Shown in pieces: positions 3,336 to 30,572 of a stretch of 64,000 nt of DNA. How positions within the stretch are numbered: position 1 is the stretch's first letter; every line of letters starts with the position of its first letter. This stretch comes from Escherichia coli (GTDB lineage: Bacteria > Pseudomonadota > Gammaproteobacteria > Enterobacterales > Enterobacteriaceae), in assembly GCF_036507355.1 (NCBI RefSeq), contig NZ_AP027877.1; one strand, given 5' to 3'. Below the pieces are notes generated by a model, which saw only the letters and a program-made list of their open reading frames with translations, was not told where the DNA came from and searched no databases. The position numbers and the translations under genes are program-made.

Positions 3336-4268
3336 ATGCTGAATAGCTGGCCTTTAGCCAAAGATTTGCAGGTACTGGTAGAAATCGTCCACAGCGGGAG
3401 TTTTAGCGCCGCAGCGGCGACCCTTGGGCAAACGCCTGCATTCGTCACCAAGCGGATCCAAATCCTTGAAAATACGCTGGCAACAACGCTGCTGAACCGA
3501 TCCGCTCGCGGCGTGGCGCTGACTGAAAGTGGCCAACGTTGTTACGAACATGCGCTGGAAATCCTCACCCAATATCAGCGACTGGTCGATGACGTCACGC
3601 AAATCAAAACGCGCCCGGAGGGGATGATTCGTATTGGCTGTAGTTTTGGTTTTGGGCGCAGCCATATTGCGCCAGCCATTACCGAACTGATGCGCAATTA
3701 TCCTGAGTTACAGGTGCATTTTGAATTGTTCGATCGACAAATTGATTTAGTGCAGGATAATATTGATCTGGATATTCGTATTAATGACGAAATTCCTGAT
3801 TATTATATTGCGCATCTGTTAACGAAAAATAAAAGAATATTATGCGCAGCACCTGAGTATCTGCAAAAATATCCGCAGCCACAATCCTTACAGGAATTAA
3901 GTCGTCATGACTGTCTGGTGACCAAAGAGCGCGATATGACCCACGGAATATGGGAGTTGGGGAACGGTCAGGAGAAAAAATCGGTGAAGGTTAGCGGGCA
4001 TCTTTCCTCCAATAGCGGCGAGATAGTGCTGCAATGGGCGCTGGAGGGCAAAGGGATTATGCTGCGTTCCGAGTGGGATGTGTTGCCGTTTCTGGAGAGT
4101 GGCAAACTGGTGCGAGTATTGCCGGAGTATGCACAAAGCGCCAATATCTGGGCTGTTTACCGGGAGCCGCTCTATCGCAGCATGAAATTACGTGTCTGCG
4201 TGGAATTTCTGGCGGCATGGTGCCAGCAACGGCTGGGCAAGCCCGATGAAGGCTATCAGGTCATGTAG
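3336..4268 (+). CDS. ttdR: LysR-family transcriptional activator of the ttd operon
   Basis: 310-aa ORF with N-terminal HTH and LysR substrate-binding domain, divergent from ttdA. Confidence 0.9.
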
Positions 4269-6289: not shown

Positions 6290-6372
6290 AATAGTGTCGG
6301 ATGCCTGGCGTTGTCCAAGATTGCGTAGGCCGAATAAGGCGTTCACGCCGCATCCGGCAAAATGCCCAATAC
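6290..6372. repeat. REP (repetitive extragenic palindromic) element
   Basis: gccggatgcggcgtgaacgccttattcggcctac-type palindromic unit between uppP and cca. Confidence 0.7.
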
Positions 6373-12748: not shown

Positions 12749-14182
12749 ATGAAAGTAACGCTGCCAGAGTTTGAACGAGCAGGAGTGATGGTGGTTGGTG
12801 ATGTGATGCTGGATCGTTACTGGTACGGTCCCACCAGCCGTATCTCGCCGGAAGCGCCGGTGCCCGTGGTTAAAGTGAATACCATCGAAGAACGCCCGGG
12901 CGGCGCGGCTAACGTGGCGATGAATATCGCTTCTCTCGGTGCTAATGCACGTCTGGTCGGGTTGACGGGCATTGACGATGCAGCGCGCGCGCTGAGTAAA
13001 TCTCTGGCCGACGTCAACGTCAAATGCGACTTCGTTTCTGTACCGACGCATCCGACCATCACCAAATTACGGGTACTTTCCCGCAACCAACAGCTGATCC
13101 GTCTGGATTTTGAAGAAGGTTTTGAAGGTGTTGATCCGCAGCCGCTGCACGAGCGGATTAATCAGGCGCTGAGTTCGATTGGCGCGCTGGTGCTTTCTGA
13201 CTACGCCAAAGGTGCGCTGGCAAGCGTACAGCAGATGATCCAACTGGCGCGTAAAGCGGGCGTTCCGGTGCTGATTGATCCAAAAGGTACCGATTTTGAG
13301 CGCTACCGCGGCGCTACGCTGTTAACGCCGAATCTCTCGGAATTTGAAGCTGTTGTCGGTAAATGTAAGACCGAAGAAGAGATTGTTGAGCGCGGCATGA
13401 AACTGATTGCCGATTACGAACTCTCGGCTCTGTTAGTGACCCGTTCCGAACAGGGTATGTCGCTGCTGCAACCGGGTAAAGCGCCGCTGCATATGCCAAC
13501 CCAAGCGCAGGAAGTGTATGACGTTACCGGTGCGGGCGACACGGTGATTGGCGTCCTGGCGGCAACGCTGGCAGCGGGTAATTCGCTGGAAGAAGCCTGC
13601 TTCTTTGCCAATGCGGCGGCTGGTGTGGTGGTCGGCAAACTGGGGACGTCCACGGTTTCGCCGATCGAGCTGGAAAACGCTGTACGTGGACGCGCAGATA
13701 CCGGCTTTGGCGTGATGACCGAAGAGGAACTGAAGCTGGCTGTAGCGGCAGCGCGTAAACGTGGTGAAAAAGTGGTAATGACCAACGGTGTCTTCGATAT
13801 CCTACATGCCGGACACGTCTCTTATCTGGCAAATGCCCGCAAGCTGGGTGACCGCTTGATTGTTGCCGTCAACAGCGATGCCTCCACCAAACGGCTGAAA
13901 GGGGATTCCCGCCCGGTAAACCCACTCGAACAGCGTATGATTGTGCTGGGCGCACTGGAAGCGGTCGACTGGGTAGTGTCGTTTGAAGAAGACACGCCGC
14001 AGCGTCTGATCGCCGGGATCCTGCCAGACCTGCTGGTGAAAGGCGGTGACTACAAACCGGAAGAGATCGCCGGGAGTAAAGAAGTCTGGGCCAACGGCGG
14101 CGAAGTGTTGGTGCTCAACTTTGAAGACGGTTGCTCGACCACTAACATTATCAAGAAGATCCAACAGGATAAAAAAGGCTAA
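12749..14182 (+). CDS. hldE: Bifunctional D-beta-D-heptose 7-phosphate kinase / heptose 1-phosphate adenylyltransferase
   Basis: 477 aa; N-terminal ribokinase-like domain and C-terminal cytidylyltransferase motif [12 protein letters not shown]. Confidence 0.93.
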
Positions 14183-14261
14183 CCGGAAAGCGGTTCACAG
14201 ATCTCGCTTCGTACATGGCAGGCCTATTGACGCTGTTGTTTTTTCAACCTAGAGTAAAGGA

Positions 14262-14410
14262 ACAAGGGTAAGGGAGGATTTCTCCCCCCTCTGATGAGTT
14301 GTTAGTAAGTCGGGAAACTTAACAGTAACAACACAACCAGTATGATGACGAGCTTCATCATAACCCTTTCCTTCTATAAGGCCCCTTCCTCGGGAGGGGC
14401 TTTCCCGTTT
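14262..14410 (+). ncRNA. sibE: Sib-family antisense sRNA (antitoxin), copy proximal to hldE
   Basis: Promoter TTGACG(14227-32)-17 bp-TAGAGT(14250-55); terminator hairpin gcccctTcc/ggaggggc + U-tract at 14380-14410; fully antisense to the ibs ORF; ends approximate; D/E naming by synteny only. Confidence 0.7.
14302..14361 (-). CDS. ibsE: Ibs-family type I toxin, 19 aa (MMKLVIILVVLLLLSFPTY)
   Basis: Hand-translated minus-strand ORF, ATG 14361 to TAA 14302-04; hydrophobic 19-mer typical of Ibs; below ORF-track size cut-off. Confidence 0.75.
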   Translation of the reverse strand: MMKLVIILVVLLLLSFPTY

Positions 14411-14637
14411 CAGCCCCTTGCTGTCTCCCCGATTGTTGATGAGCGCCGGACCCCGCGCAACGCTTTCCCTGAAGCAGTTTTGCCTTCCCCGAGCGGTCAC
14501 GCAAAACGCTGCAACGTCCTGAGCATTTGCACCTTTTAGCGGAACGCAGATATAAAAAATCCCCGGCTTTTTGGGCCAGGGATATGTGTTAATGAAACCT
14601 TCTTGACGCTGATTTTTTTTCAACCTAAAGTAAAGGA

Positions 14638-14786
14638 ACAAGGGTGAGGGAGGATTTCTCCCCCCTCTGATTGGCTGTTAATAAGCTGCGAAACTTACGA
14701 GTAACAACACAATCAGTATGATGACGAGCTTCATCATAACCCTTTCCTTCTGTAAGGCCCCTTCCTCGGGAGGGGCTTTCCCGTTT
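14638..14786 (+). ncRNA. sibD: Sib-family antisense sRNA (antitoxin), copy proximal to yqiK
   Basis: Promoter TTGACG(14603-08)-17 bp-TAAAGT(14626-31); same terminator hairpin at 14756-14786; antisense to second ibs ORF. Confidence 0.7.
14678..14737 (-). CDS. ibsD: Ibs-family type I toxin, 19 aa (MMKLVIILIVLLLVSFAAY)
   Basis: Hand-translated minus-strand ORF, ATG 14737 to TAA 14678-80; paralog of the copy at 14302..14361. Confidence 0.75.
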   Translation of the reverse strand: MMKLVIILIVLLLVSFAAY

Positions 14787-14929
14787 CAGCCCTTTGCTGA
14801 CTCCCCGATTGTTGATGAGCGCCGGACCTCGCGCAACGCTTTCCCTGAAGCAGTTTTGCCTTCCCCGAGCAGTCACGCAAAACGCTGCAACAGCCTGATC
14901 ATTTGCACCTTTTAGCGGAACGCAGATAT

Positions 14930-14965
14930 AAAAAATCCCCGGCTTTTTGTGCCAGGGATGTTCAT
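14930..14965 (-). terminator. Intrinsic terminator downstream of yqiK
   Basis: Minus-strand hairpin cccuggc/gccgggg followed by AUUUUUUAU directly after the yqiK stop; a near-identical copy lies at 14555-14590. Confidence 0.6.
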
Positions 14966-14975
14966 AGCTGAAAAT

Positions 14976-16637
14976 TTATTCTACGTTTTCGGCGACGGGA
15001 GTTGTTGAGGTTAAGGGTGAAGTCAATGCAGCCAGTGAGCCGCCTGAAACGCCAATTTCATTGAGCAAGGAGTCAATCAGTGGTGCCTGTGTGCGGTAAG
15101 AGAGTGCGGCTGATAATGCTTGTTCCGCCAGGTTTCCGCCCCCCACATTACCCGTGTTTGCATCCCCCGCAGTACCACCACGATTCAGTCCATCGACCTG
15201 TATGATCTTAATACCATCGATCGACTTCATCGGCTCAACGGATTTCTCAATTACCGCAGGCAGCGCCTGCAATAATGCCAGTTTGAATTTAAGGCTGGTT
15301 TGTTCATCAGAAAGTACGTTGATAGCATCGTTCAGCGCACGTTGCGCTTCTGCTTCCGCCAGACCCTTTTTACGTGTAGCTTCGGCTAACTCAACGATAG
15401 CCGCCGCCTGCATCTCTGCGGCTTCTTTTTCTGCTTTTGCCCGCACGGTCAGTTCAACCGCTTTGGTTTCTGCATCCTGCGCGGCAGCGATTAGGGCAAC
15501 TTGTTTAGCACGATCGGCTTCTGCGGTCTGGCGAGTGGTTCCAACGTTTTGTTGGGCGCTTACTGCTTCTGCGAGTGCAAGGTTAGCACGCGCTTCTGCC
15601 TGGGACTGTTGTTCCGATTTGGCGGCAATAGCGATCGATTTCGTCTGGTTAGCGATTTCGGTGACCTGCTGCTGTTCGATCTCTTTAATGCGAACTTCAC
15701 GTTCAGCTTCAACTTTTCTTGAGCGGACGGCCTGTTCGCGGTCGATTTCTGTTTCCTGAATCTGTCGTTCAGCCAGAATTCGCGTCTGCTCTGCTTCACG
15801 ACGACGTTCAGCTTCAAAAGCCGCAATTTTCGCATTCTGCTCAGCGGTACGGGTTTTAACCTGCTGCTCCTGCTCAAGCGTCATAAACGCTTCTTGTTGT
15901 TCAATCTCCAACTTGCGCGAAAGTGCATCACGGTTTTTCTCACGCACCGCAACTTCTACATCCTGTTCAACTTCGTTACGCTCGCGGCGACGGCGCTCCG
16001 TCTCCTGAGTCAGTTTGGTTAAACCTTCGGCGTCAAAGGCATTGTTCGGATTGAAATGTTCTTTCGAGGTCTGGTTAAAGTTGGTAAGTGAAACGCTTTC
16101 CAGTTCCAGGCCGTTTTTCGACAGATCTTCAGCTACGGTATTTTGTACTCCCTGCACGAAGTTCTCGCGGGTATCCTGTAACTCATGCATGGTCATTTGT
16201 GCAGCTGTTGCACGGAGGGCATCGACGAATTTATCTTCAACCAACATACGTAAATCTTCTGGTGATAGCGTGCGTTGCCCCAACGTTTGGGCAGCGGTGG
16301 CAATCCCTTCTACTGAAGGTTTTACCCGCACAAAGAAAGCGACTACTACATCGACGCGCATACGATCTTTCGTAATCAGGCTATCAATGGTTGAGCGGCT
16401 GACTTCCAGCTTCAGAGTATTCATATTGATGGGGATTATTTCATGAAAGATCGGCATCACGATTGCGCCACCGCTCATTACCACTTTTTGCCCACCTAAA
16501 CCAGTACGAACAAAAGCTTGCTCTGCCGAAGCTCGACGATAGAGCCTGGCGAAAATAATTCCAATAATAAACAGAATGCATACGGCAATAATCGCGGTAA
16601 ACATCCAGGAGGGCACAGAATTAACAATATCATCCAT
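14976..16637 (-). CDS. yqiK: Flotillin-like SPFH/band-7 family membrane protein
   Basis: 553 aa; N-terminal TM helix, SPFH domain, long Ala/Glu/Lys/Arg-rich coiled-coil. Confidence 0.9.
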   Translation of the reverse strand: MDDIVNSVPSWMFTAIIAVCILFIIGIIFARLYRRASAEQAFVRTGLGGQKVVMSGGAIVMPIFHEIIPINMNTLKLEVSRSTIDSLITKDRMRVDVVVAFFVRVKPSVEGIATAAQTLGQRTLSPEDLRMLVEDKFVDALRATAAQMTMHELQDTRENFVQGVQNTVAEDLSKNGLELESVSLTNFNQTSKEHFNPNNAFDAEGLTKLTQETERRRRERNEVEQDVEVAVREKNRDALSRKLEIEQQEAFMTLEQEQQVKTRTAEQNAKIAAFEAERRREAEQTRILAERQIQETEIDREQAVRSRKVEAEREVRIKEIEQQQVTEIANQTKSIAIAAKSEQQSQAEARANLALAEAVSAQQNVGTTRQTAEADRAKQVALIAAAQDAETKAVELTVRAKAEKEAAEMQAAAIVELAEATRKKGLAEAEAQRALNDAINVLSDEQTSLKFKLALLQALPAVIEKSVEPMKSIDGIKIIQVDGLNRGGTAGDANTGNVGGGNLAEQALSAALSYRTQAPLIDSLLNEIGVSGGSLAALTSPLTSTTPVAENVE

Positions 16638-17298
16638 TATTAAATTTCCTTTTGATTAATAAATTACAATATTTGGGGCCAGGGATTGTTTTCCGCCAAA
16701 TATCGCGTTGCAGAAAGTCGGCAAATAATTAACACTTTGTCTCCTTTAGTGAAAATTTTTCCTTCTTCAGGCTCCAGTAGTAAATAATGTATTTGGCCAA
16801 ATTGATCGGTGAGTTTTCCTTCGCAGGGATTACCTGAAGTGGCTTGATGACCGGTAATTAATGCCATGCTACCAATATATTCTTCTTCTGTAATAGCTGA
16901 ACTATGGTCGCGTGGAATCCAGGGCGCAACTATTTTACCGGTATAATGCACCGCAATAATCGTAAACAGTAAACTGACAGGAACCACGAACAGGTTCGAC
17001 AGTGGTGATTGCCAGACCATGATGCAGGCATGCTGCAACAGGATGCCAATAAGACCAAAAAAACCAGCCAGCAAGCAGAGAACGACGAGAGCTGGCAATC
17101 TTCCGATATTGAGATAATGAAGTGCCTGGCTAATATGACCTGTGGTTATGGAATCATAATGGTCAAGATGTGCATCAAGAGCACCGGAGAGCATGTGACC
17201 GCAGATAAGCGCTAAAATTTCTAAAAGGCCGATCAACAGTACAGGTGATGCTGCCAACTTACTGATTTAGTGTATGATGGTGTTTTTGAGGTGCTCCA

Positions 17299-17574
17299 GT
17301 GGCTTCTGTTTCTATCAGCTGTCCCTCCTGTTCAGCTACTGACGGGGTGGTGCGTAACGGCAAAAGCACCGCCGGACATCAGCGCTATCTCTGCTCTCAC
17401 TGCCGTAAAACATGGCAACTGCAGTTCACTTACACCGCTTCTCAACCCGGTACGCACCAGAAAATCATTGATATGGCCATGAATGGCGTTGGATGCCGGG
17501 CAACAGCCCGCATTATGGGCGTTGGCCTCAACACGATTTTACGTCACTTAAAAAACTCAGGCCGCAGTCGGTAA
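17299..17574 (+). CDS. insA: IS1 InsA (transposition repressor, zinc-finger/HTH)
   Basis: 91 aa, [40 protein letters not shown]... Confidence 0.95.
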
Positions 17575-17996
17575 CCTCGCGCATACAGCCGGGCAGTGAC
17601 GTCATCGTCTGCGCGGAAATGGACGAACAGTGGGGCTATGTCGGGGCTAAATCGCGCCAGCGCTGGCTGTTTTACGCGTATGACAGGCTCCGGAAGACGG
17701 TTGTTGCGCACGTATTCGGTGAACGCACGATGGCGACGCTGGGGCGTCTTATGAGCCTGCTGTCACCCTTTGACGTGGTGATATGGATGACGGATGGCTG
17801 GCCGCTGTATGAATCCCGCCTGAAGGGAAAGCTGCACGTAATCAGCAAGCGATATACGCAGCGAATTGAGCGGCATAACCTGAATCTGAGGCAGCACCTG
17901 GCACGGCTGGGACGGAAGTCGCTGTCGTTCTCAAAATCGGTGGAGCTGCATGACAAAGTCATCGGGCATTATCTGAACATAAAACACTATCAATAA
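17493..17996 (+). CDS. insB: IS1 InsB' frame (made as InsAB' transposase by -1 frameshift)
   Basis: 167-aa ORF in the -1 frame relative to insA; A6C slippery motif at 17550-17556. Confidence 0.9.
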
Positions 17997-18339
17997 GTTG
18001 GAGTCATTACCAACAGTACAAAGGAAATAGCGAAAAGATAAGGGGTATTATAGTCGGCGAATAAAATCATATGTCACTCCAATGTCCATTTAGTGACGCA
18101 ATATTTACTTTGGGATAGTTTCCTTGCTTGCATTTATCTTTGTTAATAATAACATATGTTAGAGAAGTTCTGGAAGAGAAAGTCTTTTAATATGGTTTTT
18201 TTATTTTTCACTAAAAAGTGTGATCGGGGACAATATATTTACGCACGTTATGTTTAAAGGCACTACACTGATTGGGGAATACTGAAATCAGAAAAAGCAT
18301 ATGGCCTTAAAAGGTATGCGATAACCGGAGGATGTGCTT

Positions 18340-18540
18340 ATGGATCATAGTCTTAATTCTTTAAATAATTTCGATTTCCTGGCGCGTAGTTTTGCCAGAA
18401 TGCACGCAGAAGGTCGCCCGGTCGATATTCTGGCCGTTACTGGTAACATGGATGAAGAACATAGAACCTGGTTTTGCGCACGTTATGCCTGGTATTGCCA
18501 ACAGATGATGCAAACCAGAGAACTTGAATTAGAACACTGA
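18340..18540 (+). CDS. glgS: GlgS (surface composition regulator, formerly glycogen synthesis protein)
   Basis: ORF 18334..18540; start at ATG 18340 gives the 66-aa [27 protein letters not shown]... protein. Confidence 0.9.
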
Positions 18541-18574
18541 TATGACGGGCCGTCTGGCCCGTTTTTGTGTTGCT
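18541..18574. terminator. Terminator hairpin between convergent glgS and ubiK
   Basis: cgggccgtctggcccg stem-loop followed by TTTTTG. Confidence 0.6.
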
Positions 18575-18989: not shown

Positions 18990-19247
18990 GAATCCGCTTA
19001 TTCTCAGGGCGGGGCGAAATTCCCCACCGGCGGTAAATCAACTCAGTTGAAAGCCCGCGAGCGCTTTGGGTGCGAACTCAAAGGACAGCAGATCCGGTGT
19101 AATTCCGGGGCCGACGGTTAGAGTCCGGATGGGAGAGAGTAACGATTCTGTCGGGCATGGACCCGCTCACGTTATTTTGGCTATATGCCGCCACTCCTAA
19201 GACTGCCCTGATTCTGGTAACCATAATTTTAGTGAGGTTTTTTTACC
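18990..19247 (+). promoter_or_regulatory. ribB 5' leader with FMN riboswitch (RFN element / sroG)
   Basis: Conserved RFN segments aggGCGGGGCGAAATTCCCCACCGGCGGTAAA ... GCCCGCGAGCGC ... CAGCAGATCCGGTGTAATTCCGGGGCCGACGGT ... AGTCCGGATGGGAGAGAG directly upstream of ribB; ends approximate. Confidence 0.8.
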
Positions 19248-28314: not shown

Positions 28315-30210
<1,896 letters not shown>

Positions 30211-30257
30211 AGGAAAGAACATTGCCCGGTCAGGATGGCCGGGCAAACAAGGCAGGT

Positions 30258-30572
30258 TTAAATCCCCGGTTGCAGGATGCGGATATTCATCTCCAGCACG
30301 TCACCTTTTACGGCTTCGCTATACGCCTTCATGTGCGGGGTTTGCAGATGCGCTTCAAGGTGCGCGATGCTTTCCCACTGCTCAATCATCACGATAGAAT
30401 CCGGTGCCATAGACTGGAAACTCACGCCAGCAGCGCAATCCACCATTGGCGCATAGCCGTGGCAACCTTCTTCTTTCAGTACGGTTGGAACGATTTTAGC
30501 AAACTGATCCAATACCGCTTGACGGTGATGTTGACCAGGACGAGTACGGATTTCTGCGATTACGGTAAGCAT
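30258..30572 (-). CDS. ygiN: Quinol monooxygenase (ABM family)
   Basis: 104 aa, MLTVIAEIRTRPGQHHRQAVL... Confidence 0.88.
   Translation of the reverse strand: MLTVIAEIRTRPGQHHRQAVLDQFAKIVPTVLKEEGCHGYAPMVDCAAGVSFQSMAPDSIVMIEQWESIAHLEAHLQTPHMKAYSEAVKGDVLEMNIRILQPGI

Follow-up and report, generated by a model that had tools for sequence, protein, structure and literature searches.

A complete IS1A-type element inserted in the 5' end of yqiJ in Escherichia coli

The closest described relatives of the element that we analyzed are IS1A and IS1R, from E. coli K-12 and R plasmids. They are 768 bp long, have 23-bp terminal repeats, encode a 232-amino-acid transposase (InsAB') by way of an A6C frameshift motif, and leave a 9-bp target-site duplication. 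IS1 insertions with 9-bp duplications in dispensable genes are routine in E. coli. When IS1 inserts within an operon, as in the classical gal and lac insertions, the insertion is polar: downstream expression is lost via termination within IS1. (The polarity and the internal terminator were reportedly described by Hubner, Iida and Arber in 1987.) The ends of IS1 are also said, following Prentki et al. in 1986, to be able to donate a -35 hexamer to hybrid promoters. Among IS1 events, about 78% leave a duplication of 9 bp and 22% one of 8 bp, and the target preference is loosely AT-rich (PMC10359306).

We analyzed a 64-kb stretch of E. coli DNA, hereafter the window, which contains just one copy of IS1. 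This copy is the same as IS1 of K-12 and the R plasmids in all of the features listed above, and only its location, in codons 18-20 of yqiJ, is particular to the lineage. The layout matches the gal and lac insertions, with IS1 within the first gene of an operon; the differences are that polarity is predicted here from sequence and that yqiJK has no strong known phenotype (PMC10434171). The event is already known in kind and is in every respect consistent with what has been described for IS1. RefSeq already annotates an equivalent insertion for E. coli X14-3, at the same site.

An earlier note on this DNA had described a complete 768-bp IS1 with both inverted repeats, insA, insB' and the A6C motif, and direct reading and scripts confirmed every part of this description (Table 1). 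The element has the GGT...ACC ends of IS1, and its terminal repeats are imperfect: IRL and the reverse-complemented IRR agree at 18 of 23 positions. The insB' frame has no stop as far as 17996. The 232-amino-acid InsAB' scores 245 bits against the NCBIfam model for the IS1 family transposase (NF033558; the cut-off is 100), and the alignment covers positions 1-199 of the profile's 199. All 768 nucleotides of the element are identical to those of many copies, from both chromosomes and plasmids of E. coli, that carry the annotation "IS1-like element IS1A family". insA, insB' and both terminal repeats are undamaged, and the length, the terminal repeats, the insA/insB' frameshift, the profile score and the size of the duplication all agree with the IS1 family. 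A consensus scan also found a promoter-like site near the left end, which we take to be IS1's own inward promoter, pIRL. That promoter is weak and is repressed by InsA.

Table 1. Features of the IS1 insertion and its surroundings, in window coordinates.
Feature	Position	Strand	Details
yqiK, flotillin/SPFH homologue	14976..16637	-	553 aa; Band_7 and Flot domains; full length, no premature stop
3' part of yqiJ, codons 18-209	16664..17243	-	without promoter, ribosome-binding site or start codon
Hybrid ORF	16664..17257	-	197 aa; TTG start inside IRL; no Shine-Dalgarno visible upstream
Target-site duplication, left copy	17235..17243	.	AACAGTACA; identical to right copy
Complete IS1, IS1A-type	17244..18011	+	768 bp; direct reading, scripts and nucleotide comparison
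IRL, left 23-bp terminal inverted repeat	17244..17266	+	GGTGATGCTGCCAACTTACTGAT
Promoter-like site	17251..17278	+	CTGCCA-16-TATGAT; consensus scan only
insA	17299..17574	+	91 aa; GTG start
insAB' transposase coding span	17299..17996	+	232 aa, via -1 frameshift
A6C programmed -1 frameshift site	17550..17556	+	AAAAAAC; fuses insA to insB'
IRR, right 23-bp terminal inverted repeat	17989..18011	+	ATCAATAAGTTGGAGTCATTACC
Orphaned 5' fragment of yqiJ	17990..18070	-	20 native codons, 6 IS1-encoded codons (VMTPTY) and a stop
Target-site duplication, right copy	18012..18020	.	AACAGTACA; identical to left copy
Predicted glgS promoter	18160..18191	+	TAGAGA...TTTAAT; published prediction (PMC3946193) mapped to the window
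Predicted sigma-70 yqiJK promoter	18232..18258	-	TTTAAA-15-TATATT; published prediction (PMC3946193) mapped to the window; now cut off by IS1
glgS, intact	18340..18540	+	NF002793 equivalog; 148 bits (cut-off 105)

The earlier note also reported that the element is flanked by an intact 9-bp duplication, and both copies are indeed perfect. A script search found AACAGTACA nowhere else in the window, on either strand, and the probability that two given positions share 9 bp by chance is about 4e-6. The duplication seems to be 10 bp because the C at 17234 coincides with the last base of IS1 (the C at 18011); if the defined ends of IS1 are used, then it is 9 bp.

On both sides of IS1, the window is collinear with the IS-free E. 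coli PE164, whose yqiJ is intact (630 nt). Because the flanks are collinear and the duplication is perfect, this is a simple insertion, as the earlier note had proposed. A composite transposon or an IS1-mediated rearrangement in the window can be rejected, as this is a lone IS1 with a perfect duplication and collinear flanks, and so can the idea that a deletion, inversion or composite transposon ends at IS1. We also rejected an IHF site as the explanation for the choice of target: the target contains ATCAA but, by eye, mismatches WATCAANNNNTTR.

The note had claimed that excision would restore a 209-amino-acid reading frame. Deleting 17244..18020 in silico gave an uninterrupted yqiJ of 209 codons on the minus strand, with the sequence that the note had quoted. 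Its ATG is the reverse complement of 18068-18070, and its stop codon begins at 16664. YqiJ is an inner-membrane protein that is paired with a flotillin. The restored protein has Pfam hits to the membrane domain YqiJ_N (PF21001, 6e-16) and to the OB-fold domain at the C-terminus, YqiJ_OB (PF07290, 3e-14); the NfeD family itself was not among the Pfam hits, and the label "NfeD-like" for YqiJ comes from PMC10434171. The restored gene differs from yqiJ of PE164 at 1 of 630 nucleotides (R197Q), and yqiJ is the only disrupted gene among the 59 PE164 genes that we compared across the window. So, yqiJ is interrupted and shows no further decay. Many E. coli genomes contain the rebuilt 120-nt empty site without a single difference.

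How widespread is this insertion? The empty site is present in 5,397 of 5,426 complete E. coli genomes (matching the rebuilt 120-nt site at 80% coverage or more, often with 100% identity). When we compared 100-mers that span the junctions to the complete E. coli genomes, both junctions were contiguous in just one genome, X14-3. Among these complete genomes, the best match to a 12-kb flank from the window was 99.6% identical. This had raised the idea of a Shigella origin, which the window does not support, given its lone IS and the lack of any broken gene besides yqiJ among the 59. The exact left junction (a 26-nt pattern) was absent from the GTDB species-representative genomes and from JGI metagenome contigs, which is weak evidence because short-read assemblies break at IS copies. 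An exact-sequence look-up of the 200-amino-acid hybrid product described below led to one draft genome (GCA_021425525.1), whose contig DAFKWY010000018.1 is identical to window positions 13664..17367 at 3,703 of 3,704 nucleotides. This contig runs from yqiK across the left junction and stops 124 bp into IS1. The comparison to other lineages that the earlier note had suggested thus turned up a near-identical draft and the divergent X14-3, with a different IS1 variant. At least one further sequenced isolate of this lineage carries the insertion, which is very rare elsewhere. The note had also described the transposition as probably recent, which is borne out only in relative terms: the element matches common IS1A copies at every position, yqiJ is one nucleotide in 630 away from the intact gene, the site is mostly empty elsewhere, and the junction recurs in just that draft and X14-3.

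IS copies often cause misassembly, so we considered whether an IS1 copy was misplaced into yqiJ during repeat resolution. A perfect 9-bp duplication, though, is the biochemical signature of a genuine insertion; the draft contig, from an independent assembly, crosses the junction from yqiK into IS1; and the complete genome of X14-3 has the same junctions. An assembly artefact is almost certainly not the explanation. The junction is real in the source DNA, the event is an ordinary IS1 insertion, and the earlier note read it correctly.

X14-3 (NZ_CP084055.1) was isolated from crayfish in China. It has IS1 at the identical nucleotide of yqiJ, with the same duplication (AACAGTACA) and in the same orientation. 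These identities would be expected if X14-3 and the window shared a single insertion, either ancestral or horizontally transferred. The X14-3 element is of the IS1B type, with 8 differences from the window's copy, so a shared origin would require that these differences arose by gene conversion. The 5' end of yqiK in X14-3 contains another IS1 (target AACATCCAG, codons 10-13) whose sequence is the same as that of the yqiJ copy, as gene conversion would also give. On the other hand, the flanking sequences already differ close to the element (the 60 bp on the left have 2 mismatches and the 60 bp on the right have 1), and the locus as a whole is 2-4% divergent. The yqi fimbrial operon is present in X14-3 and missing from the window. 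Nearly all other genomes have an empty site, and, as discussed below, two other places in the locus were surely hit twice. We therefore view a shared origin as improbable. Because the IS1 variant, the flanks and the fimbrial operon all differ, the insertion in X14-3 is most likely an independent hit, judging from these sequences.

In many E. coli, such as X14-3, YZ3-11 and H1, the fimbrial operon (ygiL-yqiGHI) is located between glgS and ubiK. In the window, just 34 bp separate glgS from ubiK (18541-18574), and PE164 is alike.

What would the insertion do to gene expression? yqiK lies downstream of the insertion and begins 26 bp past the stop codon of yqiJ. yqiJK is described as a single operon, and a sigma-70 holoenzyme SELEX site and H-NS binding are reported in the spacer between glgS and yqiJ (PMC3946193). 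The predicted yqiJK promoter (18258..18232) lies beyond IS1, so the layout itself bears out the claim that the yqiJ-yqiK pair is cut off from its promoter and start codon. Transcripts from this promoter would contain about 50 coding bases before reaching IS1, and translation would end after 26 codons. yqiJ is split after codon 20, and the product of the 5' fragment would be MILFADYNTPYLFAISFVLL followed by VMTPTY, with the stop codon in IRR. The untranslated transcripts would then terminate within IS1, which is expected because the polarity and the internal terminator of IS1 are known. Codons 18-209 of yqiJ would have no credible start: the only in-frame starts are TTG and ATC, both in IRL, and no Shine-Dalgarno sequence is visible for either. 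yqiK would lose its promoter. The most likely outcome, as predicted from this arrangement, is that yqiJ is null and that yqiK is strongly reduced by polarity.

We considered whether IS1 might instead provide a promoter for the downstream genes. Like the IS1 ends that create hybrid promoters, IRL contains a -35-like hexamer (TTGGCA) that faces outward, toward yqiJ. The difference is that, by eye, it faces GATCGG, TGATCG or ATCGGC at a spacing of 16-18 nt, and these are poor -10 elements. A consensus scan found no outward sigma-70-like promoter on the minus strand, but this negative is weak because the scan also misses the published native promoter of yqiJ. With no acceptable -10 at 16-18 nt and no minus-strand promoter in the scan, activation from IRL is unlikely, and we rejected an outward or hybrid promoter, with the same caveat about the weakness of a negative scan. 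The scan says equally little about internal promoters, for the same reason, and an internal promoter for yqiK inside yqiJ is possible.

The broken gene is also a trap for annotation. Annotation pipelines call a 200-amino-acid "yqiJ" whose first codons are in the left end of IS1, with an apparent ATC start and no ribosome-binding site, so the broken gene is reported as an intact protein. This call spans 16664-17266 (minus strand) in the window and 3665-4267 and 102-704 in two related loci (L001 and L021, respectively). PGAP calls a 603-nt yqiJ in X14-3 (WP_430670662.1), and a 200-amino-acid product is likewise called in GCA_021425525.1. When we looked for exact sequences, the 200-amino-acid version of the hybrid ORF had one record, and no record was found for the 197-amino-acid version with the TTG start. 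Thus, yqiJ can be scored as present although it is broken.

On the other side of the insertion, glgS should be essentially unaffected, as predicted from its sequence and its surroundings. The gene is 100% identical to glgS of PE164. The end of IS1 is 329 bp from the ATG of glgS (the earlier note had said about 330 bp), and 149 bp of native DNA separates IS1 from the predicted glgS promoter, whose sequence is unaltered. (The promoter's spacer is 20 nt in the window and 19 nt in PMC3946193.) The transposase genes are oriented toward glgS and against yqiJ, so IS1's own transcription runs toward glgS, but this is unlikely to matter. Because H-NS binds the spacer between glgS and yqiJ, the replacement of DNA beyond 18011 could subtly alter the silencing of glgS. 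As a side note, the published predictions for the glgS and yqiJK promoters (18160-18258) are divergent and would begin transcription about 30 bp from each other, each on the side nearer the other gene, which may make the two 5' ends overlap.

The consequences for the cell are probably small. Deleting yqiK, or even all four SPFH genes, gave no phenotype for growth, adhesion or biofilm formation, and YqiK-GFP was undetectable at its native level (PMC10434171). As relayed in that paper, a separate study found effects of yqiK on motility and with ampicillin. The insertion is probably near-neutral (we infer this effect on fitness) and probably marks one lineage.

Putting these results together, we propose that a resident IS1A-type copy would have transposed into codons 18-20 of yqiJ. 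InsAB' transposase, made by the -1 frameshift at A6C, would cut AACAGTACA with a 9-bp stagger, and repair of the staggered cut would yield the flanking duplication. We think it very likely that this account is correct as a whole: a simple IS1A-type insertion that probably eliminates yqiJ, reduces yqiK by polarity, spares glgS and is near-neutral. The insertion is a clean lineage marker. It is also a natural knockout of yqiJ, and probably a knockdown of yqiK, that can be compared to IS-free relatives. Its practical value is modest, and it raises no new biological question.

We also asked if IS1 hits this locus unusually often. In other E. coli genomes, we located the IS1 copies at and around this locus and placed them on window coordinates, using queries with IS1 in both orientations. 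(The query with IS1 flipped matched 92 genomes, but this count is inflated by an unrelated mobile module.) Across E. coli, we found at least 13 insertion events in yqiJ, at 11 or more sites: 16711, 16722, 16748, 16768/9, 16822, 16888, 16965, 17092, 17117 and 17235. There are two sites in the spacer between yqiJ and glgS (18073 and 18164), three in yqiK (16087, 16578 and 16600), one in ubiK (18603) and several in yqiI. The duplications at these sites are 9 bp in most cases and 8 bp at three sites, in agreement with the split in PMC10359306.

Some sites were hit more than once. AACATCCAG, at 16600-16608 in the 5' end of yqiK, was hit in H1 (plus orientation) and in X14-3 (minus orientation), which are unrelated genomes. 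Similarly, CAGGCTCCA and AGGCTCCAG, which are one base apart (16768-76 and 16769-77), were hit in 19KM1863 (minus) and YZ3-11 (plus). Because the copies lie in opposite orientations, both places were certainly hit twice. AACAGTACA in codons 18-20 of yqiJ, where the two hits are most likely independent, would be the third such place in the 1.5-kb locus. Three of the targets in the locus begin with AACA (AACAGTACA, AACAGTAA and AACATCCAG). A preference of IS1 for certain sites is evident at this locus, and such preferences were already known.

For yqiJ as a whole, an excess is not clear. A rough calculation, in which the 59,332 chromosomal IS1 copies are spread uniformly (59,332 × 630 bp / ~4.9 Mb), predicts about 7.6 copies in yqiJ, and we observed IS1 in yqiJ in at least 13 genomes, which is less than a two-fold difference. 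Some excess is expected for a dispensable and fairly AT-rich gene, so we do not find this enrichment convincing, and we rejected a regional hot spot for IS1 or selection at yqiJ. In a narrower version of this idea, AACAGTACA itself would be a true site-specific hot spot, and there would also be selection in some niche to lose the NfeD/flotillin pair. The E. coli with IS1-disrupted yqiJK are unrelated, and many are from livestock, food or water. We consider this combination to be unlikely. If it were true, then the repeated disruption of yqiJK would reflect selection in some niche instead of neutral decay.

Could this particular insertion be adaptive or regulatory? It might have been selected for the loss of YqiJ and YqiK, or it might rewire the promoter region of glgS, for instance by displacing H-NS-bound upstream DNA or by transcription that reads out of IS1 toward glgS. 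The transposase does read toward glgS, but, as is well established, the promoter within IS1 is weak and InsA represses it, and the predicted glgS promoter retains its native upstream DNA. The many other IS1 hits in yqiJ, yqiK and the spacer, the second hit at this exact site in the divergent X14-3, and the binding of H-NS to the spacer (PMC3946193) would all fit with an adaptive role, but the hits in yqiJ are less than two-fold above the uniform expectation and deleting yqiK has little phenotype (PMC10434171). Overall, an adaptive or regulatory insertion seems very unlikely, and we favor a near-neutral insertion in yqiJ.

While examining other genomes, we noticed a module, bounded by IS1, that contains a 3'-truncated yqiJ (a 594-nt ORF), glgS and a variable length of the fimbrial genes yqiI-yqiH-yqiG. 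Its left boundary corresponds to window position 16722. The junction between IS1 and yqiJ is constant, while the right-hand IS1 varies. The module is found on many plasmids, of 19-229 kb, and at non-native sites in chromosomes; carriers include CP062902.1 (a P1-like plasmid), pYLPD7c (where it adjoins strA/strB), the XYEH3934 chromosome and VE-F5. The 5' region of yqiJ is present at 31 places in plasmids, and an identical 1,569-bp span is present in dozens of records. From its sequence and distribution, the module looks like an IS1 composite transposon that captured the chromosomal glgS and spread. We found no description of a glgS-carrying IS1 module in the literature that we searched. In another genome, E. 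coli 23AR1101 (NZ_CM132250.1), IS1 abuts the start of yqiK (equivalent to window position 16578), the DNA on its other side is from next to qseC, and there is no duplication. This indicates that yqiK and the genes around it were lost or moved in a deletion or inversion mediated by IS1.

The comparison to PE164 also revealed a few differences elsewhere in the window. The gap between parE and ygiN (30206-30258) is without the 7.3-kb island that PE164 has there, which encodes a TonB-dependent siderophore receptor, an iron-siderophore ABC transporter and a MurR/RpiR regulator. Between cca and bacA (6325-6360), the BLAST segments overlap by 36 bp and about 57 bp are skipped on the PE164 side, which suggests a small indel associated with a repeat. 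As for noncoding RNAs, the gap between yqiK and hldE (14227-14959) contains two tandem units of a Sib antitoxin RNA and an ibs toxin, in 357-bp repeats (Rfam RF00113), and there is an FMN riboswitch upstream of ribB (18996-19144).
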